Source: Nemertoderma westbladi (Eukaryota; Animalia; Xenacoelomorpha). From it: a stretch of 64,000 nucleotides of DNA. The notes under the pieces are model-generated. The model was not told where the DNA came from. It was given only the letters and a program-made list of their open reading frames with translations, and made no database searches. Positions 7,016-64,000 of the stretch are shown here, piece by piece (positions within the stretch are counted from its first letter, which is position 1; each line of letters opens with the position of its first letter). The stretch is from NCBI GenBank assembly GCA_032718475.1, contig JAUCBJ010000012.1, positions 1 through 64,000 of the forward strand, read 5' to 3'. The position numbers and the translations under genes were made by a program.

Positions 7016-7350
7016 CAATCTGATCAGGCTTACACGCCTTCTGTTCAATACTGGCCTACAAACAAATAAAACTTGACAGAAATAAGTAAAAATCTCAATA
7101 AAAAACCAGGGCTGCAGTCCCTGATTAATTATTAAGGCCTACCGGTATATAATTATCAAAATCGAATAATACTGCTGTACCTATACTGCTGTAGGTACCG
7201 GTCCGGGTGGTTAAGTAGTCAGGCCTACTGGGTACCGGTTGCCGGTACTTCAGCTTTATTGCCTACTGCAATACAGAAGCAATATCCGTTATTGTTCTTA
7301 CCAGAACAATATTAAACTGTATTTAATGCCTACACTGCAATACAGACTAA

Positions 7351-7361
7351 ATATCCGTTAT
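7351..7361 (-). promoter_or_regulatory. Non-tRNA primer-binding site of copy A (ATAACGGATAT), complementary to LTR 8112-8102
   Basis: Directly abuts the LTR CA end; exact 11-nt reverse complement of ATATCCGTTAT inside the LTR; no TGG. Confidence 0.7.
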
Positions 7362-8542
7362 TGTTCGCGCTTTCAGACCTTTGGCAGTTTAACCCGCCAA
7401 ATTAGGATGTCTTCTAGATAATAATTCGCTTTTAGCCTATGACAAGTATTTGATTCACTACACTAGTCGAAACCAATCTGTGCGCGATCATTCACCCGCT
7501 GGATATACCCGGGAGATTGGGTTCGACGGCTTAATCGTATTGCTATGTAAGCCTAATGTATTATTCGACTGACAGTATTATATAATCTCTGACAATATTA
7601 TTCACCTTTGGGGAATATTAACAGTTCCTTTAGGACGTGGCGCTCTATCTATAAACAGAGTTATGACTTAAACTACTCACAACGATATGGCTTAGTTACA
7701 ATTCACATATATGGCGCATTCTTTAGGAAATGCTTCGTTATCAGTCTCACTCATACACAATGCTGCACAATACTGCACACTGATCTGCCGATCTTCACTG
7801 ATTTTAGTCACATATAAAAGGAACACGGACCGAATCATGTAGGGTCTATCAAATAACATTAGATTCACTTCAAACCACTTTAACATAAGTCACAATCGTT
7901 ATATGTAACCTTTCTCTCTTACCTTCGGTATATCAAGAATATTGGGTTTTCGGGGTTATTTATCGTTATTCCAAATATAATAATTCATCAACCATATTAT
8001 GAAGAACTGACAGTAAATAGCAGTATAACAATATAAAAGTATGCACAGGTTGTTTGATTAGGTATGGTATGGTATGTTATGTTTAGTTATGTTATGTTAT
8101 GATAACGGATATATGTCCTTATAATTAAGCCTACTAGTGTAAGACTAAAAACTGAAAACACGGAGGTGCCAAAAGCCGGTTCTTAGGCTCTGGGCAAAAA
8201 CATAACACTGAACTGATAAGAATAACCTTATTTACAAAGGCTTCCACCCACCACAGAGAAAGAGCATACAGATAGGAAAATTCAGTTCAGTAGATCTGTG
8301 ATAGGTCGAAATCAAAATCAACTCAAATCCTATTGGCAGATACAGAAATCAGGGCTGTGGGGCAACTTTCCCAAGCTGGTTGGACAATCAAACGTAGCCC
8401 AGATCCCTTCGCACAGCAAATCAGCCAATCAGCCGGTAGCTTGCGCTATTCGAGTTATAGATCCCTTTTTAGAGTATTCCAGCGCCTGGGGGGAACTTGT
8501 TAGCAAGGCAAACGAATCAGTTATCCCACAAAACCTTTTACA
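7362..8542 (-). repeat. 5' LTR of BEL copy A (~1181 bp, TGTAAAAG...GCGCGAACA)
   Basis: TG...CA termini; both ends match the LTR ends of copies B and C. The distal ~350 bp (putative U3) is strongly diverged from B and C. Confidence 0.85.
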
Positions 8543-36953: not shown

Positions 36954-37978
36954 TACATTTTATACCTGTTCTATGTATTTGCTAAGGAAAATAATTTACA
37001 GATTAAATGGTTGTAATTGGAAGCAGGACATGGTAAAGAATCTCCATATGGTATTGGCGGAACCCTCAAGCGCACTTTAGATGCAGTGATGGGGATGGGT
37101 GTACACCAGACACCATCTTTTGATGACATTGTGAATTGTTTTAAGACTCGAACAGTGACAGAAATACTGTACTGAAGATGATGTTAAACAACAAAAGTTG
37201 AAGTTGACACCCGAACCTAGGCCTATTAAAGGCATTGTAAAGGCACATGAGGTTTTGCTTGATCCCATCGTAATGGATTTATCGTGCCTCTGGCAAGATA
37301 AGCTCCTAAAACGGCTTTGTATCTCTAAAGTTTCCAAAAAGTGCTTTCACTTTTTTACTGTTTTGGTTTCTCGGTATCAAGACAGAACTAGCTCGCAATA
37401 ATACACGGTCCTTCAATGACTTGTTGTTTACGGAGATCCACAGCCATTTTCTAGATAGTGCAAAACACCGTGATTTCTGTTCTTTCCAGGTGTTATATTG
37501 CTTCCTTCTGGTATAAAAATAGTGTACTCTACGTAACACCATAGAAAAACCTCTTCGAAGAGGAGAAACCGGGTGAAGAGTGCTTTGGGTCCGTTAGGAT
37601 CCAAAGTATAGCTTCGAAAAATAATACAATTCAAATAATTGTAACCAAAATACACAGAAAATACAGTATTTTAGTCGTTTCGTTATGCTAAAATACTCTG
37701 AAAAATATACAAAAAAGTCCATTGAAAAAAGTCTGATTGTAGAAAAGTCTATTTTGTGGAAAATAGTCATGAAAAGTCGTAATAAACTTGGTGCAGCTTC
37801 ACGCTATTGGAACTTGGCATTAGTACAAACACCAGGTACCCGTCTGGGTCCAAACGGCGGTGGGACCGATTGGATTGAAATGGTTGGCTACTGAATTGAT
37901 ATTTTTGATATAAATTGATTGAATTGATATTTATTTCCTTACTTCTTTATCCTACGACTTAGGATTGACCTCTAAGTC

Positions 37979-39181
37979 TGTTCGCGCTTTCAGACCGTTA
38001 TTGTTCGCGCTTTCAGACCTTTAGCAGTTTAACCTGCCAAATTTGGATGTCTTTTAGATGATAGATAGTCTTTAGCCTATGACAAGTATTTGATACACTA
38101 CATTAGCCGAATCCAGTCTATGCGCGATCATTCACCCGCTGGATATACCCGGGAGACTGGATTCGGAAGCCTAACCGTATTGCGGGGTAGGCCTACTGTA
38201 TTATTCGACTGATCGTAATATATATAATCTCTGACAAATATTCTTCACTTTCGGGAAATATTAACAGTTCCTTTAGGACGTGGCGCTTTAAATATATAAA
38301 CAGAGTTATGACTTAAACTAGACACAACGGGATGGCTATAGATTCACGTATATGGCGCATTCTTTAGGAGATGCTTCGTTATCAATCACGATCATACACA
38401 ATACTGCACAATGCTGCACCCTAATCTGCCGACCTTCACTAATTTTAGTCACATATAAGGAGAACAACAGACAATACGTGTAGGGCCTATAAAATAGCAT
38501 TAGATTCACTTCAAACCACTTAATGTAAGTCGCAATCGTTATATGTATCCGGTCTCTCTAACCTTTAGTATATCAAGAAGATTGGGGTGTCTGATTGTTT
38601 ATCAGTATTCCAAATATAATATTCCATCAACAAATATAATGAATAAACGACAGCAAAAGCAGTAATGTTAAGGTATGTTATGAGTGAGTGAGTAAGTTAA
38701 GTTATGTTATGTATGTATGATCAGTGAGTTTGATATGATAACGGATATACGTTCTATAATTAAGCCTACTAATGTTGAACTAAAGACTGAAACACGGAGG
38801 TTCCACGCCGGTGTTGTAGGCTGTGGACAAAATCACAATACTGACTCACTTCCCTAGTTTCTATATACAATCTCCAACACAGAGGCAAAAAACGCTCTGA
38901 TTGGTCGACCGAACAAAGAGAGAACAAAGAACAAAGAGATGTTCCACGTGGCAATATCAGCTGTTAGCCGTCGTCATGGTATCTACACTGTTTCAAGAGG
39001 ATCCGGCGTATTGCGTCATAGAATTGCTAATCATGTCCGCTAAAGTACACATACAGAAGAAATGGCTTTTATGTCCTCTAAAACAACAGTACAGTAAGGA
39101 CACGGCCTTTTATGCCTGCTAAACCAACTACAGAGTACTTTACGGGGAAAATAACCGGCTAATTACGCAAAAGCCTTTACA
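37979..39181 (-). repeat. 3' LTR of copy B (1180 bp plus a 23-bp terminal duplication)
   Basis: 38002-39181 matches 52882-54061. Confidence 0.95.
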
Positions 39182-39259: not shown

Positions 39260-42200
39260 TTAGTCTTTCTTACGCGGACGGCGTTTACGCAGTTTTTTGA
39301 GGCTAGCAAGAGTCCTTTTCTCTTTGGGGCGAGCCACTTTACTAGGAGGGCTGTAGCTCCTGGGTGAAGGGTGCAATACAATTGCATCAGAAGGTTTAGG
39401 ATTACGATCGGTGTATCCTCCGGTCGAGGTACCTGGTTGATCGGTATCAACTTCAGTGGAGCGAGGTCTAATGGCTTTTAGGGCGCGTCTTAGGACAGCA
39501 GCTCCTACGGGTCCTTGACGGGTCGTCTGGACAATGGCGGTAGGCGGACCGTGAGTGGTAAAAAACTTCCTTGGTTTAATGGTTCTTTCCAGCTCGCGTT
39601 CTCGGGCTCGATATTTGTAGGGCCGTCGAGATACTTCCTGTAACTCAGGGTGCGAGTTGATAAATAAATCGCCATACTCAGGGTCTTGACGGATGAAATT
39701 GATCAAATGATATGAAGTAATATCGTTAGGATTGACGTTCCTAAGATATTTTCGAACAAATTTGGTGGAAATACACTCACCAACACGCTTCATTAGTTCG
39801 TAACTCGGTGTGCGTGTTTTTTGTTCCACAGACGCGAATAAATAAGGATGGAACGCGTAAACTCCCTCGTAAGAGCGTCCAGGGTAGTAGCGATGGCGGG
39901 CCTCACAATGTAAATCCGCGTTCGCTTCCCAAGCTCGGATGTAGCGCAGGGTAATCATCTCATCTACGCTTTCTAAATCGCGGTTAAAGGGGCAATTATA
40001 ACTGGCATGTCCTTTAAGTTGACAGTGGTGACATTGGGTCATAAATTGGGGGCAGACTGCAAAAATATGCGAGTTATTAAGTCTGCAATACGCACAATAG
40101 ATCTCCATCATCGGTTGTTCGTGGAAATAGGAGCAGGGTACGTCTGAGTCCATAGGGGTGAAATGGTCTCTCGATGCGCATAATCGACAACGTTTTCGAG
40201 AAATATAGTTGGCGTGTCGATAATCGTATGCGGTGAGACATTGTGGACCTTGATACCACTCCAAGACGTAATCGTTATCGCTGCTCCGGGGCGCTGTAGG
40301 CTGGATCGCTTCAGATTCTAAGCATATTGGTTCGTCTTCCAATTGCATAGCTGAGGTAGGTGCGGCTGTCTCCGCAAGCGGACCCACGGTCTGAATTTGA
40401 ATATTCTATTGTCTGAATTTCCACGACAGAATAACCTGTGGGTATTCGAGGTCTTTGTATAACAGATGAATGTAAGTTCTGTATACAAACGTCCTGAAAG
40501 AGAGCAAATCCCGCGCTGTTTAGCTTCTCTGCAGCTGAGTCTCTTAGGCTGAGTTTGGTCAGAGCGCGGTCCTTGAACTGACTATCAACGTTACGGAACG
40601 GAGTCAGAAAGCGCCTGAAACATTCGAAGCGGATTAATTTATTGTGTTCATCTAACTTGGCGAGTTTGGTTCCAAGTATTAAGGGATGGGCGCGTATGGT
40701 ACGACTGCACACATCGGCTAGCCAACCAGCAAGTGCTGCGTTTTCAAAGATCGTGTATATAGCTAAGGAGGGACAAAGTGGAACACTCATAAAGCTATAC
40801 ACGGCGCCAGGTGCGGTCAATGGTCCATCAAAGTATAAACGAGAATATTGATCTCCATATACTTGTTGGTAATTTATAGGATTTCCAACCTTGAAATTCC
40901 ATCCATATTCTTGAAAGGCAAGATGTCCGATGGAGGTTCGTTGTACTTTGGTAATGCCGCTGGGTGTATTGGCATACATAGTGCGGAAGAAACCTCGGCC
41001 TTCTGCCCAGGGAGTAATCAGCTGAGTATCCACGAAAGGGTATGGAATGTTTTCCATATTCCGAAAGTCGTTTTGTAGATCTCCATAAACAGCCGAGCCG
41101 ATTTTAAGGATTCTTTCGTTAAACAACATCTCGAGCACAGGTTGGGGTAACATCGATCCATCGATACCCATGGCCGGTTTGCGCTCGGTGTCGGCGACGT
41201 AACGCTGCGCGAGCTCGAATTGTCCATGTCGGAGTCTCTTTTGTGTCTCAGTAAGAGTTTCAAAAGAATAATCAATCACATCGGAACACGCTCGAGTAAA
41301 TACGTGGGTAGAACCAGCGAGTCCTCGTATGTGTATCATCCGCGTAGTTCCCAGTTCTCCAACCGGAATGCTACCTTCGTTATCGTAAGTGACAACTCCA
41401 TACATCTCGATAACGTTAAGAGTTTCGTTCCACTCTTTAGTGGCGTTTTCGAGGGTCATTCCCACAGGATGCCACAAGGTAGCGCATTCGCTAGCATTAG
41501 GTAGGTCTCTATACTTTAAATATTGTGTGGTATATGTTTCCACATCTCCATATCGTTGTATTCTTTCCTCCTCGAATAACACGTCAAGATTCCAGTGTAC
41601 TAAACGAGTTTTGATGAATCCATCAAGATTATACGGAGGTATTGTTTCTTTCTCTATTCTGGAAACATTATATGGTTTTCGAAATGAGTTTACTTTAACT
41701 AACTGATCCAGATGTTTCTGCAGTTGTTCGAGTTCGACAAGATCGAGAGGATTTATTAGTGGTAGAAACCTCAGACTATGTGTAGGATCTTCCGGTTTTA
41801 CCATGTAATATTGCGTTAGATTGACGTAATAAGGGTGATCTTTGCCTGTCTTTCTTTTTTGATAACTCTTCAATTATCCTTCTAAGTGCCAAAATGGGCT
41901 CCATGGTCCCACGACCTTTACGGAACCCATTTCAGGGTTCCCCCAGGGTTCCGTAAAGGTCGTGGGACCATGGAGCCCATTTTGGCACTTAGAAGGATAA
42001 TTGAAGAGTTATCAAAAAAGAAAGACAGGCATCTGGCTGTTATCTTTGTTGACTTCTTCAAGGCCTTTGATTCAGTCTCTCGCTCACGTATGTTCAGCAT
42101 ACTTTCATTATATGGGATTCCTGATGAAATTATTGCAGCAATCAGATCAGTATACGATGGTTCGACAACATTTGTGTCTACTGTTGACGGTGACACAGAA

Positions 42201-44870
42201 CCATTTGAAGTGTTATGGGGCGTCCTCCAAGGAGACACACTTGCACCATTCTTGTTCATTATTGTGGTTGACTATGTTCTACGCATGTCCTTAGATCATC
42301 ATAATGATGATGGGGTGATGATAACTCCACCTACTGGCTCCAGAAGTCGAGGAAATCCTGCCAAGTACCTAACTGATCTAGACTTTGCTGATGACTAAGG
42401 AGTACTCTCAGAATCATTAGAGGGAGCCCAGCGGCTCCTCAGCTCATTAGAACATGCTGCTTCTAGTGTTGGTCTTTTTATTAACTCCAGAAAGACCAAA
42501 ATTCTGACAGTTAACTTTGAAAGTCCTCAACAAGTCTCTGATCGGATGAGCATAAGCTCAAAGGATGGTATGCTTGAGCATGTGGACGACTTCTGTTACC
42601 TGGGATCATGGATCCGGAAGTCAGGTGAGGACCTTCGAATACGTAAGGGAAAGGCATGGGCAGCCTTGAATAGGCTTTCCAGGATTTGGAAGTCACCTAG
42701 AATTAATCGGAAACTTAAGGTCCGATTATTTAGAGCAGCAGTAGTTCCAGTACTCCTCTACGGGAGTCCATGCTGGGCTCTAACTGCTGAGGACACCAAA
42801 TCTCTGGATGGCACATTCACAAGAATGCTACGCCGGGTACATTGTGTCAAGTACAATGCACACATCTCCAACCAGACACTATATAACATTGGAGGTGTCT
42901 CATTGGTTCCCCCAAGCTTGACACTAGAACAAAATCGTCTCCGCTTTGCAGGACATTGCTTTCGCCGTGAGGACCAGCCAGTGCATAATCTTGTACTTTG
43001 GCAGCCTCATGGAGTGAATAAGCATGGTGGACAGCCCATGACTTTCTTGAGACGCATCTTAAAGGACACTGGCCTTAAAGATGCGGATGATCTAGCAAAT
43101 GTCATGGGTGATAGGGAGTTGTGGCGGCGCAATTTTGTTGACAAGCCGGCACAGCATTCTTAAAAATGCAGCTGCAATGCAGCATGCCGATCCTAGTCCT
43201 AGTTGATCCCATAAAACGAGTCCGGTAAAGGTCTAGCGCGTATGTTTACATCGTGTACCATGCGACGGACAAGATCCGCTCTATTGTCCGGAGGTTGAAC
43301 GAGTGTACCATCTACACGAGCGGCTTCGATGGGTGGACGTTGCAACATGGGAGCGTCGGCGATAAGCTCTCTAGATCTTAGGTTGATATCAACCGGTTGG
43401 GGTTGTATCGTCGCAAAGAGTTTGTCTCCGAAATGGGGAACCATCGAGGGATGAAGGATGGTTTTAGAGTAGAGATCCGTCATAAGGATTTGAGCATCGG
43501 GTTGAGCTAAAGCTGCTTCTTCTCTCTCATCTAGTTCTATATGTCTCTCCTCGAGCTGATTTTCCTCCGCTTGTTGTTGTAGACGCTCATCTAGGAACTC
43601 TTGTAAAGAGTAGGTTCGTCCACGTTCGATGTCCTCTTAGAGATTTTGTATTTCTCTATCGAACTGGGGTAAAGCTAATTCCTTCACCGCTTGGACTTGT
43701 TGTTGCAATTTACGTTTCTCCAAACAATCGTAAGTTCCTTTTCCGATTTTCTGCCGAATAGCATCTAACGCGTTTCGTACGACGCTCTCTTCGACTTCTG
43801 TAACGGGTTGTATCGAGGTGAAGCCGGGACGGTTGTGTGGGTTAAATGGCGATTAGGTAGGGTTGGCGAATATCTAGTGAGCCTACTACCGGAGTACCAC
43901 CGATCAACTGTTCGGGTAACACTAGATCTTTGAACAGTGAGTACAGTTCAGGAGGATCCGTGATACTATTAGGATCAAGAGTCTGAGGTCTAACTGAGGA
44001 ATGAGGAGGTCTGACCGAGTATTCCGGAACTCTGATCATTGGTTTGTTCAAGGATCGTTTGAGTCGAGCGACCATAGGGGATACGTCGAACAGGTTTCGC
44101 TCGAAACTCCCATAAGTATATCGTGTAAAACTGTGTTTAGCGCAACGTCTCCGCGGATGTTTATGTCTTTCCGTTTGCTGATTGGGTCTAGGGCATTCGT
44201 CGCAGTAATACCAAAGACGCACGTCCTGCAGGGGAAACGCGGGTGATCGTTCTCCAGTTTTACAATATTCCTCCATCTGTTCGAAGCTATCTGGGACGAC
44301 AGGTAGCGGTCGATCGGCGGTAAGATACATCATAGTGAAATAGAGTCGTTTGAGTTCTATCATAGGATCATGATGTATACCTTGTGGATATCGAGTTTCG
44401 AGATTTTGTTGACTGGCAATAATGAGATATGTCTCTCTCAGGAATTCCAGATAATCGTTGAAGTCGCTGCGTTTATCCGGCTCTTCAACGTCTTCCCTTT
44501 CGAGTTTGTTTCGAATAGAGTTCTCGTGTTCTATTCTCGGTTTATCGTTCCGACTCCGCTGGGTATGATATTTAAATAAAACCATTTCCCTTTCGGTGTC
44601 TACATCGTCCGTATCGTGTAAATCGATAGGATGGCCAGTAGTTAAGAAGTCCATATACGTACCATTACGATGCGTATAGCGAGCGGTGAACTTTCTATAA
44701 TCCAATTCACGCGTAAGTTGCTCCTGGGACATTGGCGGTTCGATATAACGACCATCATCCTCCGTAGTAGTTGGACCAGCGTCTCCGCGTATCAAGCTAT
44801 CGACAAACGCTTGTAAAGGTAGAGTATATCGCTCCCTAATACCGAGATCATCTTCTATCAACTCAGTCAT
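39260..44870 (-). pseudogene. Extra ORF3 of the BEL element (~1400 codons reconstructed): N-terminal region and coiled coil, DEDDy/WRN-like 3'-5' exonuclease, three CCHC-type knuckles, basic tail; disrupted
   Basis: Same-strand segments 44870-43853, 43852-43205, 41840-40411 and 40388-39260 join after correcting a 1-nt shift near 43853, one TAA (~43638), the LINE insertion (with a 1-nt shift) and a 22-bp duplication. Motifs VVTYDNEG, LEMLFNERILKIGSAVYGD, FVDTQ, SIGHLA, PLCPSLAIYTIFE; CAYC..H..C and CHHCQLKGHASYNC. Confidence 0.75.
41841..43203 (+). mobile_element. 5'-truncated RTE-like LINE (C-terminal RT half, in-frame stop after FADD) inserted in ORF3
   Basis: GFRKGRGT, FVDFFKAFDSV, GVLQGDTLAPFLF, LDFADD, FCYLGS; (TCCTAG)2 tail; TSD TGATC (41836-41840 / 43204-43208). 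Confidence 0.9.
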
Positions 44871-46504
44871 ATCTGCTATGAGTTTATCAATATTATAATG
44901 AGTTTATATATTAGGCTAGCGGGCGTCGCTGCCTACCCCTCTTTTGCCCCCGGACAGTGCAAGATCCTCAGCGCCGATGTACCGTCGTCGCTGTGCTTTC
45001 GCCAACGATGTAGCTACACAACGACAACGATAACCGGCACAAGTCACTCCACTGTCCGTCCCAAAGGCTTAGATGTACTTTAGGTTCTTTCTGGAGAGTT
45101 AGGGTTACTTTCACAATTGCGACTAGCTACTGTAAACACACTTTAGCAGTAACATTCACCTATGAACGCACAAATTCAACACAACTGCCATAAACTGTAC
45201 ACATTCGGGCCATTTGTCCGTTAGTCAGTACCTTCCAGAATGTCACTTTATTTATTATGTATCCTTGGATACTAGCAGTGCGCTATTTATTCCCTATGCT
45301 ATTCAATGGGGCAAGCCTTCTATTGTTCTTTTAACTCACTTCTAATTCTAGCGTGGTTGTTGCCATGGTGACATTATGGAAAGCTAGCGGTAGAATTAGG
45401 GTAATTCTCATGCATACAGATCTGGGATGCTATTTAATAGTAATTCTTTAATTGTCAATATCCTCTCTATATATGATTTTATGAATTTTATCGGCTATTG
45501 ACTATATATTGGAGATTCTCGCACACAAATACACTTAATAGAGTGAATCTCCGCTCCCATGATCTATTAATTAATGGAATTTTGGGAATGTTATAAATTG
45601 TATAAAATGACAATTTATTAAATTCATTGAAATATCTGAATTTAAATTTATTCCCGTAAATTTTATTATTTAATGTTAAATAGACACAATTTTATTCCAG
45701 AACGTGTCTGGGGACTGGGACCCTTGATTCGATTCTAGGAATTTTGTCTTTTTAAGAGTATCGGTAAGTGCTACGATATCTTAATCGACTAGAATTTTAA
45801 AGGATCTGATATTTGACAGATTTTGTAAATATTAATAATTAATATTTAGGATGGGCACCAGTTTATTCCAGAACTTGTCTGGGGACGTTAACCACTGATT
45901 CTAGAATTTTGTCTTTCAAGTATATCGGTGGGTGCCACGATATCTTAATCGACTAGAATTACAGCTGGTCAAAGGGTTTAACAGATTTATTTGCGTTGTA
46001 CGCTACTGTTAAAGGGACATCACGCTACTATATGTATTATCTAATATACGGTATGAGAGCAATATCGCACGAAGCAATGTCAGTGTGAAGAGGCAAGTCG
46101 TTTCCAAGGTCTACCCGGAGCTTGGTTTAGCCGAGACACGAGGATCTGAACTTTGCATTCCTAATACTCTGCCTACCAATAATACTTGAATATAGTAGTG
46201 GCTTTATTGTACTTTAATAAGTACGGACATTTCATCTTACTGTAGTTACGTATTCGTAATGTAATACGGGCAGCAAGGAAAGAGAAAAAGAATTGTTTCT
46301 CGCCGTCGCACTAAATATATAATATAAGTAATTACGTAATAAACGAGAATATATTGCACTAATCTACTAAATAATCGCTAAAATAACATTCTACTAAATA
46401 AAATTAAAGAAAACGATTATAATAAAATTACATAATAATACATACATAAATATAAAATAATAAGAATATAAAATAATATGGTCACACACCCACTCCATAT
46501 GCTA

Positions 46505-46958
46505 CTAAGCTGGGGAGTCCCTAGATGTTTGTTGGATTAGGGAGGTGGTCGTGGGAAGAGTATCTTGCCTCCCATAGTTTCCGGAGAGTTCTCTGTCTCT
46601 TTCCAGTAAACATAAGCGACCAACTGGGCGATTGAGCTGCTGCGTCTCGAAGACAATTCCCGGTTTCTTGAAGTTACGTCGCATGACGACGAGTTCTACC
46701 GATCGCACCAAACCGTCATCCGAGATGTGAGTCTCGATGATACGACCTGTCTGCCACCGCTTACGTGGAAGATCTACATCCAGAATAAGAACCATGTCTC
46801 CAGCGCTGACGTTTTCTTGCTGCGCAAACCACTTAGTTCGAAGTTGTAGCGTGGGCAGATAATGTTTTTCGAAATGGTCAGCGAAACGACGGGATAACAA
46901 CTGCATGAGTTGCCAAGTTTGCCGGCAGTATTCGTCTCCGTCTGTGATTTCCGATTGT
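46505..46958 (-). pseudogene. C-terminal integrase remnant (BEL DUF5641-type region)
   Basis: HYLPTLQLRTKW...GDMVLI...PRKRWQTGRI...DGLVRSV...RPVGRLCLL, fused out of frame directly behind Gag. Confidence 0.85.
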
Positions 46959-49900
46959 GGTAGTTAGGGTGAGGTTGCTGTCTGTGTCTTTTTCATACGT
47001 AAGTGCTCGATACACTGCGGTATTTATCATGTAACAGGATTCACCTTCGTCGGAGAATTCATCTCTATAGAATCCTTCCATCTCAGAGCTTTGGTCAGTG
47101 TCGTTCACATCACTGAATTGGACATGTAGTTCGGAATCACTTACCTGACTCTGGCTGTTTCGCTCAAATTCAGTGTGCAACAAGATATGATGTTTCGCAC
47201 CGCACTTTGCACACCTTGTGTCGGAGTAACAGGTTCGCCGTTGGTGTCCTTGTCTGAGGCAATTATAACACAACCGCTTATCCCACATGACTTCCCGTCT
47301 CTCCGCTAATGATTTCTTCAGGAATTCATCACACGTATTCAAATGGTGGGTCCCGTCACATAGCGCACATTTCGGTTTGATGTTACTTACCTTATTTTGA
47401 ATAACAGTGTGCACACTCTTTCTTTCTTCGGGCTTTCTCACCTGAATTCTCTTGGGAGACGTAGGAGGAGTTTTTCTTACCTGTTCTCTCCTGTCATTGG
47501 TTCGAGACTTGAATTTACTTACCTGTTCTTTAGGCGTTTTATTGACATAATAAGATCTTTCAGTGTCTTTCCCGCTATCCTCTCCTTGAGAAGTCTGGCT
47601 TTCGCCGTCGTCTGTATAACACACTGGTGTTACCTTTCTCCTAGAGATGGGTTTCTCACTTACCTTGTTTTCCGGTGTCTTCTCTCTGGACTGCTTTATG
47701 AGCTGTAATTTCACTTCGCCATCCAAGAATGACATGAGATCAGCCATGGTAGGGTCTCGTTGTTGTTGTTCCATCATATATAACACTTTCTTGTCCCAGC
47801 GTGTACCTACTCCACCCTTCGGTAAAGTAGAAGCCACTGCTCTAATAACCATAGCACTCTGATACTCATGAGACTTACCTAGCCAATCTAATTGTCTGCA
47901 GATCTCCTGAATCTCATCGGAAAACTCTATAATCCCGCTGCTAATAAACTTTCGGGGCGCTACCAACTTTGCATACAAATACCCAGCTATGTTATTCCTA
48001 TTACCATACCTGATGTTTAGTGTATCCCAAACTTGTCTTAATCCGTCTGGATGTCCAATAAACTTTAACGCCATTAACTTGGGAGATCCTTCCAAGCACT
48101 CGATGAGGAATCTAAGTTTCTCTCCATTAGATAGCACAGAGTTCTGTATGTTATCTTTATAATATTCATTAAAAGGTAACCATTTCATCTCATCTCCATT
48201 GAACTTCACTATCTCTCCCACCTTTACCGCTTGGCGGGCTTCGGTTCTAGCCATTTGACGCGTAAAACTTTCTTGGGCCATCGTGTTATTTAATATCGAG
48301 TTATCGGTATATAAATTTCTTGGGTTATGATCAGGTCTATAGGGAATATCACTATCAACAGGTCTATAATTACCCTTAATAGGGTTTACTATAGGAGTTT
48401 CTACTTCACTAGCAGTATAGATGCGTGTAGGCTCCACACCTTGCGCATGAAATACTTCAGACCTAACGGGTTGACATATTGTTACAGAGGGTGGTGATAT
48501 ACCCTTTTGTAAATTTACTAATTTCTCGCGTTCTAGCGCGATACTTTGCTGCACTTCTTGCAACTCTAACCTACTTTCCTTTACGGTTCCCTTTAACTGT
48601 TGAACAGTCCCTTCTAACTCTCGGACCTGTAGGGAGGAGCGCACTCGATTCTCCTTCATCTCTCCGAGGAGAATGTCCATCCCCCGCTGTCTCTCGTCTA
48701 CCCAATCAACCGCCGAAGCAGGATCCGCCAACGTCGTAGCGGGCGGACGAGGGACTACAGGCGATATATCCTTTATATTTCGCTCGGAGTCCAGGACCGA
48801 CACTGCTTCAGGGGCTGTTCCTCTAGGCACAGATAATTTGGTGCTGTGTAAAGGGAATTTAAAGGTGGGTTCTGGGAGCACAGGTGTCTCTATCACCGAA
48901 GGGGTGATTTCAAGAACAGGCCTAATTATTTCAGGCTCATCTACTATAGTAGGGAGTCTTTCTAGTTTAATTATTTGGTCTGTGGGTTCTGTACTACCTA
49001 AATCTGTGTTAGTTAATTGCCTTCTAACAGCTGGGGGCAAATCAGGCAATTTGTGACGGTAAGATGTTCTTCTACGCCTACTTAGACGAGATCTATTTCC
49101 TCTGCCTTCAGGATCGGTGGTATCGCCTTCCTCAGATGATGTATAACCTTGTCTCTTGGGAGTAGATCTATTCATCATCTGCATATTACTAGCTGTTAAC
49201 TGTTTACTGAAGTTGTCTTGCTTCTCTTGAAGATTTTCCAACTCTAGTTGGGTTGTCTCTTCAGATGCCCTCCGTTCTGCTTCTGCCACTGCTATTTTTC
49301 TTTCCGCTTCGGCCGCTGCCGCTTTTCTTGCTGCTTCTACTGCTGCAGCTGCCGCTTTTGCTTCTGCCGCTGCCGCTTTTGCCTCTGCTGCTGCCTCTGC
49401 CGCTTTTCTATCCGCTTCTGCCGCTGCCACTGCCGCTGCTGCTGTCTTTCTATCTTCTATACGTTTTTTCTTTACTTGTTCTTCTTGAACCTTAGCGATG
49501 CGGATGCTTTCATTGAATTTAGCTTGGTTCGCAGCTAACCTATCCACATCGATTGCGTCCAACACACGCTGGGCTCCTTCACTATTAGGGCTAAGCCCCT
49601 CTAGTCTTCTCCTCAACTCTTCATCTCCTACAAAACGTTGATAGTCCGACAGATAGATGTCAATGGCATCCCTCTTATGCGGCTTCTCTGCCGTCGCTTC
49701 ACTTTCCACTTGGGAAAAAGTAGCGTCTGTTGATTCTCCATGGGTTGAGCGCTCATCCAGTTGGGCTTTCCACTGAGTCGTTCCTTGCACCTGGAGGCTC
49801 ACCTGTTGAAACCAAGTCTTTACGGCAACTTGCAACGACGTGTCTTGTCTTCTTTTAGAAGCCTCCTCAAAGGCCGATAAGATTAGCCTGATTCGTAGAA

Positions 49901-50621
49901 TTCTTTCTCTAACTTGATAAAGCAGCTGTCCCTGCTCTTGAGGTCCTTGGGGTTGTTGAAACAGTTGTTTTTCTAATCACTCCATGGAGCTGAAGAATCC
50001 CTGTACGTATCCGGCTGCGGACCTCTTCCACACAGCTGGATCGATGGTTTCCTTGGTTACTCCCATCCTGTGTATATCTTCCCAGGCAGCTTCTGATAAA
50101 TCAAACGGGAGTCCGGGTCCGGGGAAGTTCCATTGCGACTCGACAATAGACTTCAGTTCTTCCCTTGTGTATCCCTCATAACTATCTTTAGTCGATCGCT
50201 TACTTCTCGCCCAATCGATCTGGTGTTCTTCCACCGCAATCAATAACCTAGTGAGTATGGCTGCAGGAAGGATGAGAAGGGGATCCGAATAAACCGCATC
50301 CGTCATCTTTGCTCCGCGCTCGGGTGTCAGCTCTACAGTATCCTCACTACTGGAGCTGTCGGGCCGTTGAGAAATAAGTTCTTGGCTCGCGGGTTGTTGT
50401 TGTTCCGCTGCTTCTTGGTCCCGCTTGACCTGAGCTCTAGTGCCTATGACAGACCTACGGTGTTGGACCAGCCTAGGTTCTGATATTACTACTGGGGAAA
50501 TGATCTTTCTTACAGTAGGAGGTGAGTTGAACTTCGGTCTAACACGTTCCACACTCCTGTCTGGGTCACATAAGGTTGTATCTAGGAGACTGTCTGACAG
50601 GTTTTGCTTTGTGTCAGACAT
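46959..50621 (-). pseudogene. BEL Gag of copy B, in-frame CGA>TGA stop at 49979-49977
   Basis: ORFs 49977-50621 and 46878-49835 share a frame; DUF1759-like region and triple knuckle CALC..H..C / CYNC..H..C / CAKC..HH...H. Confidence 0.9.
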
Positions 50622-52870
50622 GTTGGTTTGTACAGTTGAATGCCTACTGCTATATTACAGTTAAAGCAAGTTTAGTAATTCAGTATCAACTGTTAGCCTA
50701 GTAATTAATTACCGATACTGCTACTCAGTGTAGCGTGATATATATATAATATATTAGAATACCGGTATGCTTATAGTATATATATAAGTATTATTACAGA
50801 CTAGGTTTGTCACAGGATACCGGTATGTAATTCCAGCACAAATATATATAAATATATAATAGGCCTATCGTGAATACCGGTATGCAGCTTACACTTATAG
50901 TACATATAAGTATAATTATTAACTAGAATTAATTACAGAATACCGGTATGATTTCAGCCTAAATTTATATAACTAAATATAATAAGCCTATCGTGAATAC
51001 CGGTATGTCAATTATTTTAGAATAATTGAATTTCTGAATTTTTAGGGGTTACTTGGTTACTTTAACTTACTTTATTACCGTTATTTAAGCAGTAGTCCAA
51101 CTGATATTTAGACCTAATTGTTGTATGGCAGGCCTACTATTTATAAATCGTTTGATTTGATTTATAATATATATATACCCGTTTAATGGGTTTTGTCAAT
51201 ATTTGAAATAAATGTTATTATTTCTGGGGGGAGTCACTACACAGAAGCTGTGCGCTCTCAGTGGAATGCTACTTGTTGGACACTAAAACAAATAATTCTA
51301 ATTTACCTAAGTTACTTAATACTACAAATTACATACAATTCGGGGTGAGATTACAATCTCTAAATAAACACAAAAAATTACACGTACGAATTTTTAGGGT
51401 AATTTTACAAGAAGTCTACAAACCAGCCTAACAAAGGGTTAGAAATCTGGTTATTACAACGGACAGAGTACTACGGTATTTGAAAATAATAAGTAGTAGT
51501 AAATATACTGCGTTGTCCAGATAGAAAAATACCACCGTCTGACGACTTATAGCCGTATCGCTATAAGTACTACGTTATGTATCACGGAGTGTTCCTACCT
51601 AGAAGTTAATTACCGCGGTCTACCAGAACCAACGTGCCTATTAACCACTTTACAACACAAATATACTGCCTACACACTAATTGCCTTCGGAAAGCACTGT
51701 ACACTAAACCCTAAATTAGGTACAAGTACTTATACAACAAATAATTAGTAGTTAAAATACTTGAACAGCTAAAAGAACCACGGTATCTGCCGGAGTGACC
51801 AAAGCACAAAATCTCCAGTCTTTACCTACGCCGAGCAGCCCTGATGTAGTACCGGGGTTAGTTTAACTATAACAGTATGTATAACAAGCACAATTACTGT
51901 AGGAATAAACTTGGGGAATGAATGTTGCAAATAATCGCATAAACTCTGAATAATAAATATTACGCTACGCGTACAGACTACTCAAACAAAATGCAGACCA
52001 AATACTGACAGACTACTATCAAGCCTAAACAAACTACGGTATATGCAGACTCCGAAATGGTTAGTTAGTATGCGTTCTAACCTAGTAGTACGACTTATTC
52101 TTTCAGAGGGGGTTTACCTCACAGCACTGGAAGCCCCTACATTCCCAACTGGCACTTTATCGGACATACACTCTACACACACCGAAATTTCCTCAGACCT
52201 AACAACAGCCAGACAACTATCCAGCCTACAAATTATCTAAATAAGAATTATACGCTACCTGTATAGACTACACAAACAGAGTACAGACCAAACGCTGGCA
52301 GACTACTATCAAGCCTAAATAAACTACAGTATATGCAGACTCCGAAATGATTAGTTAGTATGCGTTCTAACCTAGTAGTACGACTTATTCTTTCAAAGGG
52401 GGTTTACCTCACAGCACTTGAAGCCCCTACGTTCCTAACTAGCACTTTATCGGACAGATGCTCTACACACACTGCAATCTGTTCAGACTTAACAACAGTT
52501 TGACAACAGTCTAGCCTACAAATTGTCTGTACAATCTGAGCAGGCTTACACGCCTTCTGCTCAATATTGGCCTACAAATAAATAAAACTTGACAGAAATA
52601 AGTAAAATCTCAATAAAAAACCAGGGCAGGGCGGCCGTCCCTGATTAATTATTAAGGCCTACCGGTATATAATTATCAAAATCGAATAATACTGCTGTAC
52701 CTGTACTGCTGTAGGTACCGGTCCGGGTGGTTAGGTAGTCAGGCCTACTGGGTACCGGTTGCCGGTACTTCAGCTTTATTGCCTACTGCAATACAGAAGC
52801 AATATCCGTTATTGTTCTTACCAGAACAATATTAAACTGTATTTATTGCCTACCCTGCAATCCGAACTTG

Positions 52871-52881
52871 ATATCCGTTAT
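52871..52881 (-). promoter_or_regulatory. Non-tRNA PBS of copy B (ATAACGGATAT), complementary to 53628-53618
   Basis: Abuts the 5' LTR end; exact 11-nt complement inside the LTR. Confidence 0.7.
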
Positions 52882-54061
52882 TGTTCGCGCTTTCAGACCT
52901 TTAGCAGTTTAACCTGCCAAATTTGGATGTCTTTTAGATGATAGATAGTCTTTAGCCTATGACAAGTATTTGATACACTACATTAGCCGAATCCAGTCTA
53001 TGCGCGATCATTCACCCGCTGGATATACCCGGGAGACTGGATTCGGAAGCCTAACCGTATTGCGGGGTAGGCCTACTGTATTATTCGACTGATCGTAATA
53101 TATATAATCTCTGACAAATATTATTCACTTTCGGGAAATATTAACAGTTCCTTTAGGACGTGGCGCTTTAAAAATATAAACAGAGTTATGACTTAAACTA
53201 GACACAACGGGATGGCTATAGATTCACGTATATGGCGCATTCTTTAGGAGATGCTTCGTTATCAATCACGATCATACACAATACTGCACAATGCTGCACA
53301 CTAATCTGCCGACCTTCACTAATTTTAGTCACATATAAGGAGAACAACAGACAATACGTGTAGGGCCTATAAAATAGCATTAGATTCACTTCAAACCACT
53401 TAATGTAAGTCGCAATCGTTATATGTATCCGGTCTCTCTAACCTTTACTATATCAAGAAGATTGGGGTGTCTGATTGTTTATCAGTATTCCAAATATAAT
53501 ATTCCATCAACAAATATAATGAATAACCGACAGCAAAAGCAGTAATGTTAAGGTATGTTATGAGTGAGTGAGTAAGTTAAGTTATGTTATGTATGTATGA
53601 TCAGTGAGTTTGATATGATAACGGATATACGTTCTATAATTAAGCCTACTAATGTTGAACTAAAGACTGAAACACGGAGGTTCCACGCCGGTGTTGTAGG
53701 CTGTGGACAAAATCACAATACTGACTCACTTCCCTAGTTTCTATATACAATCTCCAACACAGAGGCAAAAAACGCTCTGATTGGTCGACCGAACAAAGAG
53801 AGAACAAAGAACAAAGAGATGTTCCACGTGGCAATATCAGCTGTTAGCCGTCGTCATGGTATCTACACTGTTTCAAGAGGATCCGGCGTATTGAGTCATA
53901 GAATTGCTAATCATGTCCGCTAAAGTACACATACAGAAGAAATGGCTTTTATGTCCTCTAAAACAACAGTGCAGTAAGGACACGGCCTTTTATGCCTGCT
54001 AAACCAACTACAGAGTACTTTACGGGGAAAATAACCGGCTAATTACGCAAAAGCATTTACA
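52882..54061 (-). repeat. 5' LTR of copy B (1180 bp)
   Basis: TGTAAATG...GCGCGAACA; ~99.3% identical to the 3' LTR by eye. Confidence 0.95.
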
Positions 54062-56343: not shown

Positions 56344-57512
56344 TGTAAAAGCTTTTGCGGAATTAGCTGGTTATTTTCCCCGCAAAGTACTCTGTAGTTG
56401 GTTTAACGGACATAAAAAGCCGTTTCCTTACTGTACCGGTGTTTTAGAGAACATAAAAAGCCATTTCTTCTGTATGTGTACTTTAGCGGACATAACTAGC
56501 AATTTTATGTCGCAATACGCTAAAATCCTCTTGACACAGTGTAGTTACTATGATGACGGCTAACAGCTGATCTGTACACGTGGAGCTTTTCCTTTGTTCT
56601 CTGTTCTTTCTTTGTTCGGTCGACCAATCAGAGCGTTTTTTGACTCTGTGTTGGAGATTGTATACAGAAACTCATGCAATTGAGTCAGTTGGTGTATTTT
56701 GTCCACAGCCAGAAGACCGGCTTTGGAATCTCTGTGTTTTCAGGCTTTAGCAAAACATTAGTAGGCTTGATCATAGAACGTATAACCGTTATCTAAACAA
56801 TTCATACCTAATCAAACAAAACAATCAAAACACCGCATTTTTACTGCTATTTACTGTCGGTTATTAATTATATCAGTTGATGGAATATTATTATATTGGG
56901 ATAATATCGATCAATAATCAGAAACCCCAATCTTCTTGATATACTGAAGGTTAGAGAGACTGGTTACATATAACAATTGCGACTTACATTATATTGGTTT
57001 TGGAGTGAATCTAATGCTATTTCATAGGCACTACATGAGTCAGTGGTTGTTCTCTTTATATGTGACTAAAATTAGTGAAGGTCGGCAGATCGGTGTGCAG
57101 CATTGTGCGGTAGTGTGCATGATTGTGACTGATAACGAAGCATCTCCTAAAGAATGCGCTTTATACATGAATCCATAGCCATCCCGTTGTGTCTAGTGTA
57201 AGTCATAACTCTGTTTACATATTTAGAGCGCCATGTCCTAAAGGAACTGTTAATATTTCCCAAAAGTGAATAATATTGGTCAGAGATTATATATTAACAA
57301 TCAGTCGAATAATACAGTAGGCCTACACCGCAATAAGGTCAAGGCTTCCGAATCCAGTCTCCCGGGTATATGCAGCGGGTGAATGGTCGCGCATAGACTG
57401 GCTTCGGCTAATGTAGTGTATCAAATACTCGTCATAGGCTAAAGTCGATTTATAATCTAGAAGACATCTAAATTTGGCAGGTTAAACTGCTAAAGGTCTG
57501 AAAGCGCGAACA
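56344..57512 (+). repeat. 5' LTR of copy C (~1169 bp)
   Basis: TGTAAAAG...GCGCGAACA, homologous to the B LTRs. Confidence 0.9.
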
Positions 57513-57523
57513 ATAACGGTTAT
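57513..57523 (+). promoter_or_regulatory. Non-tRNA PBS of copy C (ATAACGGTTAT), complementary to 56782-56792 (ATAACCGTTAT)
   Basis: Compensatory substitution relative to copies A and B at both sites. Confidence 0.7.
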
Positions 57524-58606
57524 TGCTTCTGTATTGCAGTAGGCAATAAAGCTGAAGTACCGGTCAACCGGTACCCAGTAGGCCTGACTACCTAACCACC
57601 CGGACCGGTACTTACAGCAGTACAGGTACAGCAGTATTATTCGATTTTGATAATTATATACCGGTAGGCCTTAATAATTAATCAGGGACTGCAGCCCTGG
57701 TTTTTTATTGGGATTTTACTTATTTCTGTCAGTTTTATTTATTTGTAGCCCAATATTGAGCAGAAGACGTGTAAGCCTGCCCAGATTGTACAGATAATTT
57801 GTAGGCTGGACTGTTGTCTGACTGTTGTTAAGTCTGAAGAGATTGCGGTGTGTGTAGAGTGTATGTCCGATAAAGTACTAGTTAGGAAAGTAGGGGCTTC
57901 CAGTGCTGTGAGGTAAATCCCCTCGAAAGAATAAGTCGTACTACTCGGTTAGAACGCATACTAACTAACCATTTCGGAGTCTGCATATACTGTAGTTTGT
58001 TTAGGCTTGATAGTAGTCTACCAGCGTTTTGTCTGTATTTTGTATGTGTAGTCTGTACGGGTAGTGTAATATTTCTTATTTAGATAATTTGTAGGCTGGA
58101 TTGTTGTCTGGCTGTTGTTAGGTCTGAAGAGATTGCAGTGTGTGTAGAGTGTATGTCCGATAAAGTGCCAGTTAGGAACGTAGGGGCTTCCAGTGCTGTG
58201 AGGTAAACCCCCTCGAAATAATAAGTCGTACTACTCGGTTAGAACGCATACTAACTAACCATTTCGGAGTCTGGATATACCATAGTTTGTTTAGGCTTGA
58301 TAGTAGTCTGTCAGCATTTGGTCTGCATTTTGTTTGAGTAGTCTGTACGCGTAGCGTAATATTTATTATTCAGAGTTTATGCGATTATTCGCAACATTCA
58401 TATCCCCAAGTTTATTCCTACAGTAATTGTGCTTGTTATATATACCGTTATAGTTAAATTAACCCCGGTACTACATCAGGGCTGCTTGGCGTAGGTAAAG
58501 ACTGGTGATTTTGTGCCCCGGTCACTCCAGCAGATGCCGTGGTTCTTTTAGCTGTACAAGTATTTCTAACTGCTAGTTATTTGTTGTATAAGTACTTGTA
58601 CCTAAT

Positions 58607-60312: not shown

Positions 60313-61420
60313 ATTTAGGGTTTAGTGTACAGTGCTTTCCGAAGGTAATTAGTGTGTAGGCAGTATATTTGTGTTGTAAAGTGGTTAATAGGCACGTTGG
60401 TTCTGGTAGACCGCGGTAATTAACTTCTAGGTAGGAACACTCCGTGATACATAACGTAGTACTTATAGCGATACGGCTATAAGTCGTCAGACGGTGGTAT
60501 TTTTTCTATCTGGACAACGCAGTATATTTACTACTGCTTTGTTATTTTCAAATACCGTATTACCTTGTCCATTGTAATAACCAGATATTCTAACCCTTTG
60601 TTAGGCTGGTTTGTAGACTTCTTGTAAAATTACCCTAAAAATTCGTACGTGTAATTTTTTGTGTTTATTTAGAGATTGTAATCTCACCCCGAATTTTACG
60701 TAATTTGTAGTATTAAGTAACTTAGGTAAATTAGAATTATTTGTTTTAGTGTCCAACCAGTAGCACTTCACTGAGAGCGCACAGCTTCTGTGTAGTGACT
60801 CCTTCCCAGAAATAATAACATTTATTTCAAACATTGACAAAACCCATTAAACGGGTACACAAATATTATAAATCAACTCAAACCGATTTATAAAATAGTA
60901 GGCCTGTCATACATCAATTAGGTCTTAATGTCAGTTGGACTACTGCTTAAATAACAGTAATAAGGTAAAGTAAAGTAACCAAGTAACCCCTAAAATTCAG
61001 AAATTCAATTATTCTAAAATAATTGATATACCGGTATTTACGATAGGCTTATTATATTTATTTCTATAAATTTAGGCTGAAAATTATACCGGTATTCTGT
61101 AGTTAATTCTAGTCTGTAATAACACTTATATATATACTATAAGTGTAATCTGTATACCGGTATTCACGATAGGCCTATTATATATTTATATATATTTGTG
61201 CTGAAATTTATATATACCGGTATTCTGTGACAAACCTAGTCTGTAATAATACTTATATATACACTATAAGTGTATACCGGTATTCTAATATATTGTATAT
61301 ATATTACGTTACATAGAGTAACAATATCGGTAATTAATTACTAGGCTAACAGTTGATACTGAATTACTAGACTTGCTTTAACTGTAATATAGCAGTAGGC
61401 ATTCAACTGTACAAACAAAC

Positions 61421-64000
61421 ATGTCTGACACAAAGCAAAACCTGTCAGACAGTCTCCTAGATACAACCATCTGTGACCCAGACAGGAGCGTGGAACGTGT
61501 GAGACCGAAGTTCAATTCACCTCCTACTGTAAGAAAGATCATCCCTCCAGTGGTAATATCAGACCCTAGGCTAGTCCAACACCGTAGGTCTATCATAGGC
61601 ACGCAAGCTCAAGTCAAGCGAGACCAAGAAGCAGCGGAACAGCAGCAACACTCGAGCCGAGAACTTATTTCTCAGCGGCCCGACAGCTCCAGTAGTGCGG
61701 ATACTGTAGAGCTTACACCCGAGCGCGGAGCTAAGATGGCAGATGCGGTTTATTCGGATCCCCTTCTCATCCTTCCTGCAGCCGTACTCACTAGGGTATT
61801 GATTGCGGTGGAGGAACACCAGATTGATTGGGCGAGAAGTAAGCGATCGACCAAGGATAGTTATGCGGGATACACAAGGGAAGAACTGAAGTCTATTGTT
61901 GAGTCGCAATGGAACTTCCCCAGACCCCGACTCCCGTTTGACTTATCAGAAGCTGCCTGGGAAGACATACACAGGATGGGAGTGACCAAAGAAACCAGCG
62001 ATCCAGCTGTGTGGAAGAGGTCAGCAGCAGGATACGTACAGGGATTCTTCAGCTCTATGGAGCGATTAAAGGAACAACTGTTTCGACAACCCCAAGGACC
62101 TCAAGCGCAGGGAGAGCTGCTTTATCAAGTTAGAGAAAGAATTCTACGAATCAGACTAATCTTATCGGCCTTTGAGGAGGCTTCTAAAAGAAGACAAGAC
62201 ACGTCGTTGCAAGTTGCCGTAAAGACTTGGTTTCAGCGGGTGAGTCTCCAAGTTCAAGGAACTGCCCAGTGGAAATCTCAGTTGGCTGAGCGCTCAACCC
62301 ATGGAGAATCAACAGACGCTACATTTTCCCAAGTGGAAAGTGAAGCGACGGCAGAGAAACCGCATAAGAGGGATGCTATTGACATCTATCTGTCGGACTA
62401 TCAACGTTTTGTAGGAGATGAAAGTTGAGGAGAAGGCTAGATGGACTTAGCCCTAATAGTGAAGGAGCCAAGCTTGTGTTGGACGCAATAGATGCGGATA
62501 TGATAGCTGCAAACCAAGCTAAATTTGATGAACGCCTCCGCATCGCTAGATCCAAGAAGAACAAGTAAAGAAAAAACATATAGAAGACAGAAAGACAGCG
62601 GCAGTGGCAGCAGCAGTGGCAGCGGCAGAAGCGGAAAGAAAGGTGGTAGAGGTGGAAAGAAAAGCGGCAGCGGCAGCAGCCGAAGTGGAAAGAAAAGCGG
62701 CAGTAGCAGCGGCAGAAGCGGATAGAAAAGCGGCAGAAATAGAAAGAAAGGCAGTGGCAGAAGCAGAACGGAGAGCGTCTGAAGAGATCGCCCAACTAGA
62801 GTTGGAAAATATTCAAGAGAATCAAGACTGCATAAATAAACAGTTAACAGCTAGTCAAATGCAGATGATGAGTCGATCTACTCCCAAAAGGCAGGGATTT
62901 ACATCATCTGATGAAGGCGATACCACCGATCCTGAAGGTGGAGGAAATAGATCTCATCTAAGTAGGCGTAGAAGAATGTCCCACCGTCAGAAATTGCCTG
63001 ATTTGCCCCCAGCTGTTAGAAGGCAACTAACTAACACAGACTTAGGTAGTACAGAACCCACAGACCAAATAATTAAAATAGAAAGACTCCCTACTATAGT
63101 AGATGAGCCTGAAATAATTAGGCCTGTTCTCGAAGCCACCCCTTCGGTGATAGAGACACCTGTACTCCCTGAACCTGCCTCTGAATTCCCTCTGCACAGC
63201 ACTAAGCTACCTGTGCCCCACAGAACCACCCCTGAAAATGTTCATGTCCTGGACTCCGAGCGAAATATTAATGATTTGTCGCCCGTTGTCCCTCGTCCGC
63301 CCGCTACAACGTTGGCGCCTCCCGCTTCGGCGGTCGAGTGGGTAGATGAGGGACGACGGGAGATGGGTCTCCTGCTCGGGCAGCTGAGGGAACACCGTTC
63401 TTGCTCCTCTCAGCAGGTCCAGGAGATGGGGGAGACTGTGCAGCAGTTAAAGGGAACAATTAGAGAGGGTAGGTTAGAGTTGCAAGAAGTGCAGCAAAGT
63501 ATTGCGTTAGAACGCGATAAACTAGTAAATCTCCAAAAGGGTATACCACCACCCCCTGTAACAATGTGTCAACCTGTTAGGTCTGAAGTATTTCATGCGC
63601 AAGGTGTGGAGCCTACACGCATCTATACTGCTAGTGAAGTGGAAACTCCTATAGTAAACCCTATTAAGGGTAATTATAAACCTATTGATAATGATATTCC
63701 ATATAGACCTGATCATAATCCGAGAAATTTATATACCGATAACTCGATATTAAATAACACGATGGCCCAAGAAAGTTTTACGCGTCAAATGGCTAGAACC
63801 GAAGCCCGTCAAGCGGTAAAGGTGGGAGAGATCGTCAAGTTCAATGGAGATGAGATGAAATGGTTACCTTTTAATGAATATTACAAAGATAACATACAGA
63901 ACTCTGTGCTATCTAACGGAGAGAAACTTAGATTCCTCATCGAGTGCTTGGAAGGATCTCCCAAGTTAATGGCGTTAAAGTTTATTGGACATCCAGATGG
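61421..64000 (+). pseudogene. BEL Gag of copy C with two 1-bp deletions (~62422, ~62551)
   Basis: Matches B Gag; frameshifts located by comparison with B. Confidence 0.85.

Follow-up and report, generated by a model that had tools for sequence, protein, structure and literature searches.

Three copies of a long terminal repeat (LTR) retrotransposon lie in a 64,000-nt window of contig JAUCBJ010000012.1 from Nemertoderma westbladi (GCA_032718475.1). These elements, A and B on the minus strand and C on the plus strand, belong to the BEL/Pao superfamily, and in each of them the first 11 nt past the 5' LTR are the exact complement of an 11-mer inside that LTR. In most of the informative relatives from metagenomes, the corresponding complement emerges only once a predicted intron is removed from the LTR. 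We put it at about 55% that a broad BEL/Pao lineage has given up tRNA priming in favour of a primer joined by the host spliceosome from the element's own LTR transcript; the splice would mark the primer-giving copy as against the unspliced copy that is the LTR template, and in families like that of the window the intron would be gone and the primer present in finished form. That BEL/Pao elements of this group are primed by some RNA derived from themselves is, on the same sequence comparisons, very likely.

An 11-nt LTR motif complementary to the first bases past the LTR

A preliminary description of this DNA had reported three pairs of complementary 11-mers, with pairing that ends at exactly 11 nt and a distance of about 730-750 nt between the LTR motif and the site past the LTR. 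All six coordinates and sequences proved correct, as did the exact 11-nt limit in A, B and C. The relevant features are as follows.

56344..57512 (+): element C 5' LTR, TG...CA, 1169 bp, 86% alike to the B LTRs, ends read directly
56782..56792 (+): C LTR 11-mer, predicted primer, variant at position 4; the next base is C, which fits A(C/T)|(C/G)
57513..57523 (+): C putative primer-binding site, directly past the LTR CA, complementary to 56782-56792
8102..8112 (-): A LTR 11-mer, predicted primer
7351..7361 (-): A putative primer-binding site, first copy
7282..7292 (-): A putative primer-binding site, second copy, in a 69-nt duplication
53618..53628 (-): B LTR 11-mer, predicted primer
52871..52881 (-): B putative primer-binding site, first copy
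52802..52812 (-): B putative primer-binding site, second copy
37979..38001 (-): 23-nt duplication at the B 3' LTR end, made up of the opening bases of the primer site and then a repeat of the last 18 LTR nt

To assess significance, each LTR was dinucleotide-shuffled 5000 times, with the match anchored at the first base past the LTR-terminal CA. A complement of at least 11 nt was reached in 2/5000 shuffles for A, 9/5000 for B and 3/5000 for C; because the LTRs are 82-86% alike, these three matches count as one event. Each site of element C carries one change relative to A and B, with pairing preserved, so that the compensatory change of the preliminary description stands, and so does its statement that TGG is absent: the first TGG is at +59 in A and B, and there is none in the first 108 nt of C. 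The complementarity in A, B and C and its compensatory change are a real feature of these elements. Neither a tRNA gene nor an Rfam match was found within the window.

The primer site occurs a second time 69 nt downstream in A and B, where this second copy is partly hidden in a predicted hairpin, and as a single copy in C. The 69-nt duplication (7282-7361 and 52802-52881) is roughly skipped by one contig in each of two sequencing runs. Several run contigs diverge from B within 1-2 bases past the 3' end of the motif, as the window copies do, and a further allele at motif position 6 is present in loose contig ends of all three runs, with its partner site unseen. Directly 3' of the 11-mer the sequence is variable and A/C-rich, with repeats resembling ATAAC (53535-53617, 8040-8101 and 56793-56850); the letters ATAAC are also the five that open the primer site.

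At the 3' LTR of B, the target-site duplication encloses both the first bases of the primer site and the repeated last 18 LTR bases. We read this arrangement as a probable slip in reverse transcription at the primer junction, the alternative being conversion from a 5' LTR. Such a slip product would mean that the primer site was copied next to the LTR end, and does not indicate the identity of the primer RNA.

A splice junction inside the window 11-mer itself was considered and rejected, as the 11-mer contains no AG. Acceptor-like sites at about -38 and at -72 to -77 are common to A, B and C, and an upstream donor is seen in B only. The exact LTR-end pattern was found in 0 stretches of metagenome contigs, and its single match in a viral contig was taken as chance because the flanks are unrelated.

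Putative primer sequences across a predicted splice junction in relatives

Relatives were taken as the best 80 of 461 metagenome stretches encoding a related reverse transcriptase (RT), which at 85% RT identity form 59 families. Junctions were searched for with GT...AG as the only requirement and no wider donor or acceptor consensus demanded. For 11 loci, drawn from 18 listed, the LTR end was set by the repeat between 5' and 3' LTRs; left out were L003 (same family as L005) and L030, L032, L047, L059, L069 and L078 (repeat not ending at ACA, or unclear), and in two of those retained, L066 and L053, the repeat end coincides with the contig end. Past these repeat-fixed ends there is no TGG, and an unspliced complement is mostly missing too. 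A junction match of 10-15 nt was found in 9/11, an unspliced match in one (L017) and nothing in one (L053), whose LTR end is misplaced and whose family does match in the blind scan described below. The donors of the nine junction matches read GTAAG in 8/9 and GTACGT in 1/9, though the search required just GT and AG. When sites and junctions were swapped between loci, 11 nt were reached in 2/156 pairs, both between two families that share a junction, and 10 nt in 8.

All 80 loci were also scanned blindly for junction matches of at least 10 nt, with a reversed control alongside. Such matches were obtained for 30/80 loci versus 3/80 in the control, and at a threshold of at least 11 nt for 28 versus 0; the 30 loci fall in 22 of the 59 RT families, loci within one family not being independent, and many of the 50 negatives are contigs too short for an LTR. 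The corresponding scan for unspliced matches does not discriminate on its own (19/42 loci versus 13/42 in the control). Two of the top blind-scan matches, in L059 and L066, are probably chance because the donor lies outside the LTR; L066 has a 10-nt match at its LTR end, and the match of L071 is weak. Among 21 family representatives, which were picked by their match so that the count of own matches is circular, all junctions are different, none has TGG in the first 8 nt (0/21), and cross matches of at least 10 nt are confined to 8/420 pairs, all between near-identical junctions. The predicted primer 3' end conforms to A(C/T)|(C/G) in 19/21 families, and the window motif likewise ends in AT followed by C. 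In loci L004-L080 the primer site begins 0-4 nt past the LTR end, often after TCA, TTA or TAA; with this offset, the overhang left for integrase would vary between families.

The joined junction is present ready-made in the LTR of L033, whereas in L015, of the same family, exactly that point is occupied by a pyrimidine tract and AG; the L015 donor lies outside its contig, and the related L012 and L018 have both donor and acceptor. This contrast would be expected if a spliced RNA had been reverse-transcribed. Six loci (L017, L022, L030, L033, L069 and L078) were chosen by eye, from end signature and position, as intron-less like the window family, and on the RT tree the spliced and intron-less states need 5 changes. 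The sister families of L022 and L051 have the last 7 primer bases in common (L022:110-135, L051:2310-2330); in L051 an acceptor precedes the shared bases, and in L022 there is a pyrimidine stretch, free of AG, which is part of the match. L022 may represent a possible second route to an unspliced primer.

The proposal of the preliminary description that the primer is an element-derived RNA is supported, as a prediction, by evidence from these relatives far exceeding the one covarying pair. Its further suggestion that self-priming evolved independently in this lineage is unsupported, since the trait is widespread among the relatives found and the RT tree allows a shared origin without proving it. 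Trees were built from about 215 columns covering the first part of RT only, a quick one of 106 rows and a careful one of 36 rows, and in the latter the window RT groups with 27 metagenome loci against 8 other proteins (support 72/86). Among viral contigs, none of 54 was confirmed as an RT relative. Given the common end signature, a shared origin of the trait is the simpler reading, although it is not shown by the tree.

Transcript start and source of the primer

The window 11-mer, which had been taken for the 5' end of the transcript, is probably internal to the leader, judging from the LTR alignments. Homology of A to B and C begins at a TCAGT motif 94-97 nt upstream of the 11-mer. Upstream of about 8211, the unique 3' region (U3) of A is unrelated to those of B and C (18-52% column identity), its first 40 nt excepted; on this comparison the U3 of A (8211-8542) is an exchanged one, with a breakpoint near TCAGT. 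Three features of the C leader matter here, the latter two in the unique 5' region (U5) or between it and the leader.

56685..56689 (+): C TCAGT initiator-like motif, candidate transcript start, 95 nt upstream of the 11-mer; shared by A and B, with the candidate start base at 56687 in C, 53722 in B and 8209 in A
57130..57137 (+): C U5 8-mer able to pair with the 3' part of the 11-mer (a competing helix, in A, B and C), predicted pair probability 0.8-0.99
57318..57546 (+): C predicted U5-leader helix around the LTR end and primer site, arms ~57318-57343 and 57524-57546

In the mechanism that we lean towards, transcription would start about 95 nt upstream of the 11-mer, making the primer internal. 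The motif, spliced or ready-made, would pair with the site past the LTR, and a cut at its 3' end, made by the element RNase H if the analogy with Tf1 holds, would yield the primer; the A(C/T)|(C/G) end common to most families is no more than suggestive of such a cut. Minus-strand DNA would start at the LTR end or within 0-4 nt of it, and plus-strand synthesis would recopy the primer into its binding site in every cycle, so that the two sites are kept matched and their covariation is explained. In most of the informative relatives the motif would be formed by removal of the LTR intron, the window family being the intron-less form. This internal-primer version of self-priming is, in our estimate, somewhat better than an even bet.

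Several points weigh against this account. Within the window there is one covarying pair only, and contigs from sequencing runs of three studies are dense over the LTR but short, with none spanning both sites, so that covariation across the family is unreadable. The window RT is a long branch, and grouping the metagenome loci without it is not rejected (approximately unbiased test, p-AU 0.40). The TATA-like box in the window lies just 25-26 nt before TCAGT. For A, B and C the folding model has a hairpin in U5, a stem at the LTR end and, enclosing the primer site, long helices between U5 and leader; one of these helices carries two single compensating changes and a double one between A and B, a small number. 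In the predicted fold, the partner of the 11-mer is the U5 8-mer instead of the primer site; opening both sites would cost 5-11 kcal/mol against about 12 gained, and the duplex of 11-mer and site would cross the U5-leader helix, an arrangement that the folding program cannot model. The predicted fold leaves pairing in cis neither supported nor excluded.

An exact Tf1 mechanism, in which the 11-mer would be the first 11 nt of the transcript, cut after nt 11, and spliced relatives would have a first exon of 4-7 nt, is the strongest rival, and a fairly unlikely one. It has the precedent of Tf1 itself (PMC7175516, in the accessible parts of that paper), and two findings count for it and against an internal primer: the match is exactly 11 nt in 11/21 families whatever the exon split, as expected of a cap-started primer, and in L009 a clear TATA box precedes the match by 31 nt. 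The internal-primer reading leaves this fixed length unexplained. The 11-mers also have a T/A context, and the conserved 95-nt block upstream could be a core promoter. However, A, B and C have no TATA at -30 of the 11-mer, as the preliminary description had noted, the TATA of L005 is 133 nt before its match, and none was found in 18/20 relatives scanned. The 5' edge of the match is pyrimidine-purine (YR) in 7/21 families, no more than chance and with no initiator signature. In 7/21 families the 5' edge lies 4 nt from the splice donor, so that a transcript beginning there would need a 4-nt first exon, and matches of 14-15 nt are in excess (4/21 observed, 0.3-0.75 expected for a primer stopping at 11).

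Rather improbable is a primer from another molecule or another end: a short spliced or trimmed LTR transcript acting in trans, or genomic RNA whose 3' end is trimmed to the motif, possibly by the exonuclease-like product of element B. A trans primer would account for the persistence of the LTR intron through reverse transcription in most families, and a short spliced LTR RNA in trans fits this persistence as well as the mechanism we favour does; the cis fold is not favoured in prediction, and an extra open reading frame (ORF) of B resembles 3'-5' exonucleases by language-model features (score 0.93, 163/256 shared). The exonuclease assignment is just a lead, since sequence search returned no homologue and PDB no match; the single-sequence structure model was useless (predicted local distance difference test, pLDDT, 32), and by eye the third exonuclease motif is without its acidic residue. 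The relatives inspected for unspliced complements have no room for the extra ORF. Nor is there a poly(A) hexamer just ahead of the window motif, and AATAAA or ATTAAA lies downstream of the motif in 17/20 relatives, a count made with no control and including some hexamers past the LTR end.

We consider it very improbable that a host tRNA fragment or other small RNA primes and the LTR match is incidental. Priming by tRNA-Arg or tRNA-Gly is given for the family by ICTV, the international committee for virus taxonomy (PMC8742986), half-tRNA primers without TGG are known in Copia lineages according to the accessible parts of PMC6317226, and host tRNAs and small RNAs lay outside our search, which also tells against the reading we prefer; yet the 21 families have 21 different junctions, each fitting its own site with cross matches in only 8/420 pairs, and the change in C is compensated in the LTR. 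Least credible is a match that arose by chance or serves the RNA fold without a role in priming: the leader is predicted to be highly structured, the 11-mer has an alternative partner in U5 and the three copies are one event, but the match starts at the first post-LTR base in the polarity that a primer needs, no alternative primer site is visible, and the same geometry is found in 22/59 families.

Superfamily, element anatomy and known systems

The BEL/Pao identity given in the preliminary description is borne out by polyprotein domains and homologues. The LTR ends are TG...CA, and element B has a 5-bp target-site duplication, as is typical of BEL/Pao. Gag matches DUF1759 (PF03564) with E values of 1.6e-11 and 8e-11, and three zinc knuckles can be read in the translation. 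A search with the element A protein gave 33 matches among 4962 candidates (best E 6e-68), most of them with PF05380, PF03564 or PF18701. The domain order seen is protease then RT in A, with DUF5641 in B; neither RNase H nor the integrase core lies within the window. The remaining parts of the elements are listed below.

61388..63998 (+): element C gag, in two pieces, leaving the window at its edge (ORF translation)
7362..8542 (-): element A 5' LTR (LTR comparison)
3..5045 (-): element A gag-pol frame, broken close to the start of the window; it encodes DUF1759, three zinc knuckles, protease and the first part of RT
52882..54061 (-): element B 5' LTR, 1180 bp (LTR comparison)
46878..50654 (-): element B gag with one interrupting stop; most of pol deleted
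46505..46963 (-): element B integrase C-terminal piece (DUF5641; Pfam E 2.8e-21)
39260..44903 (-): element B extra 3' coding region, in pieces, split by a long interspersed element (LINE) fragment; leads only
43842..44903 (-): piece of the extra region, unknown
40311..41873 (-): piece of the extra region, 3'-5' exonuclease-like
39260..40405 (-): piece of the extra region, zinc knuckles
38002..39181 (-): element B 3' LTR, carrying the 11-mer at 38748-38738; 8 differences in 1180 from the 5' LTR
37974..37978 (-): element B target-site duplication, 5 bp, right copy; left copy at 54066-54062

Element B is a whole minus-strand insertion, from 54061 to 37979, with two 1180-bp LTRs. G/T exchanges account for 6/8 differences between them, an odd spectrum that may be sequencing error. 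The three knuckles of its last extra piece are of CCHC type, and the extra coding region is not env-like. The LINE fragment inserted in this region (41843-43160, plus strand) has an RT match and starts with a 190-nt inverted repeat (41843-42031), as from 5' inversion. The leader of element C has a 1.7-kb insertion (58607-60312) that A and B lack, accompanied by a 65-nt direct repeat (59155-59218 and 60252-60314). All three elements share a 290-bp tandem duplication in the long leader (6440-7012, 51945-52528 and 57791-58374) and a tandem duplication of 123-127 bp ahead of gag. At window positions 1-40 the RT frame of A jumps back to a repeat of an earlier stretch (~370-400).

Elsewhere in the window there are tandem arrays at 9173-13323 (units of 34 (101) bp) and 27385-28971 (23 (45) bp), and palindromic elements of 220-340 bp, like miniature inverted-repeat transposons, at 22838-23058, 23164-23387 and 31612-31950. 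A plus-strand frame at 25507-26091 with an RNA recognition motif (Pfam E 5.6e-20) is probably a host exon.

The elements resemble BEL/Pao, of which the nearest named proteins are from mussel, barnacle and fish, in their TG...CA LTRs, 5-bp duplication, DUF1759, three knuckles, protease, RT and DUF5641. In the ICTV profile, the primer site is 18 nt long and serves tRNA-Arg or tRNA-Gly, and BEL/Pao replication is termed poorly understood (PMC8742986); unlike that profile, the window elements are without an 18-nt tRNA-complementary site, there being no TGG near the LTR end. We file them as BEL/Pao on protein evidence, and question the tRNA site as a family-wide feature.

In Tf1, the first 11 nt of the transcript pair with the primer site and RNase H cuts after nt 11, as described in the accessible parts of PMC7175516, PMC4600332 and PMC5341516. 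Like Tf1, Tf2, Tj1 and the Tf1/sushi group of Ty3/gypsy, the window elements have no tRNA site and a perfect 11-nt complement between an LTR motif and the bases past the 5' LTR; a U5 stem-loop and U5-leader helices around the primer site are likewise predicted. Unlike that group, they are BEL/Pao, their motif lies about 740 nt from the LTR end and is probably not the transcript start, and in BEL/Pao relatives it is split by a predicted LTR intron. Tf1 reportedly requires a U5 structure near its primer site. The window polyprotein is not that of the Ty3/gypsy chromoviruses, to which the Tf1/sushi group belongs; the elements work like Tf1 in self-priming, as predicted here, and are not Tf1/sushi members.

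The Caenorhabditis elegans BEL/Pao element Cer7 encodes its own tRNA-like primer RNA in the internal region. The window elements share with Cer7 an element-encoded primer in BEL/Pao, here a predicted one, and differ in having the putative primer sequence in the LTR.

Self-priming is listed for Tf1/sushi, Tcn1 and TAR in the accessible parts of PMC6317226, where the signature in Tcn1 and TAR is a stretch of at least 10 nt, starting 0-5 nt past the LTR and complementary to the LTR. As in Tcn1 chromoviruses and TAR Copia elements of plants and fungi, self-priming is here predicted from that signature; those belong to other superfamilies, and the unspliced-only test set out in these parts of the source would miss the junction form. 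Term look-ups in the accessible text of three BEL/Pao surveys (PMC554778, PMC3118150 and PMC6238403) returned no mention of primer-binding site or tRNA, and the accessible parts of PMC3601003, PMC13524379, PMC8220671, PMC5443660 and PMC6934838 contained nothing on BEL/Pao priming. We found no report of BEL/Pao self-priming or of a splice-built primer in a search that left aside subscription journals, Repbase reports, GyDB pages and supplements.

The predictions made here are exact as to the junction, the primer 3' end and the candidate start site. Self-priming would also account for the failure of annotation tools to locate a primer site in such elements. If the proposal is true, self-priming reaches a third LTR superfamily, and the elements would escape silencing by tRNA fragments aimed at tRNA sites. 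A splice-built primer would tie the spliceosome to reverse transcription, a connection we have not found in print, and if a large part of BEL/Pao self-primes, the description of the superfamily as tRNA-primed needs revision.
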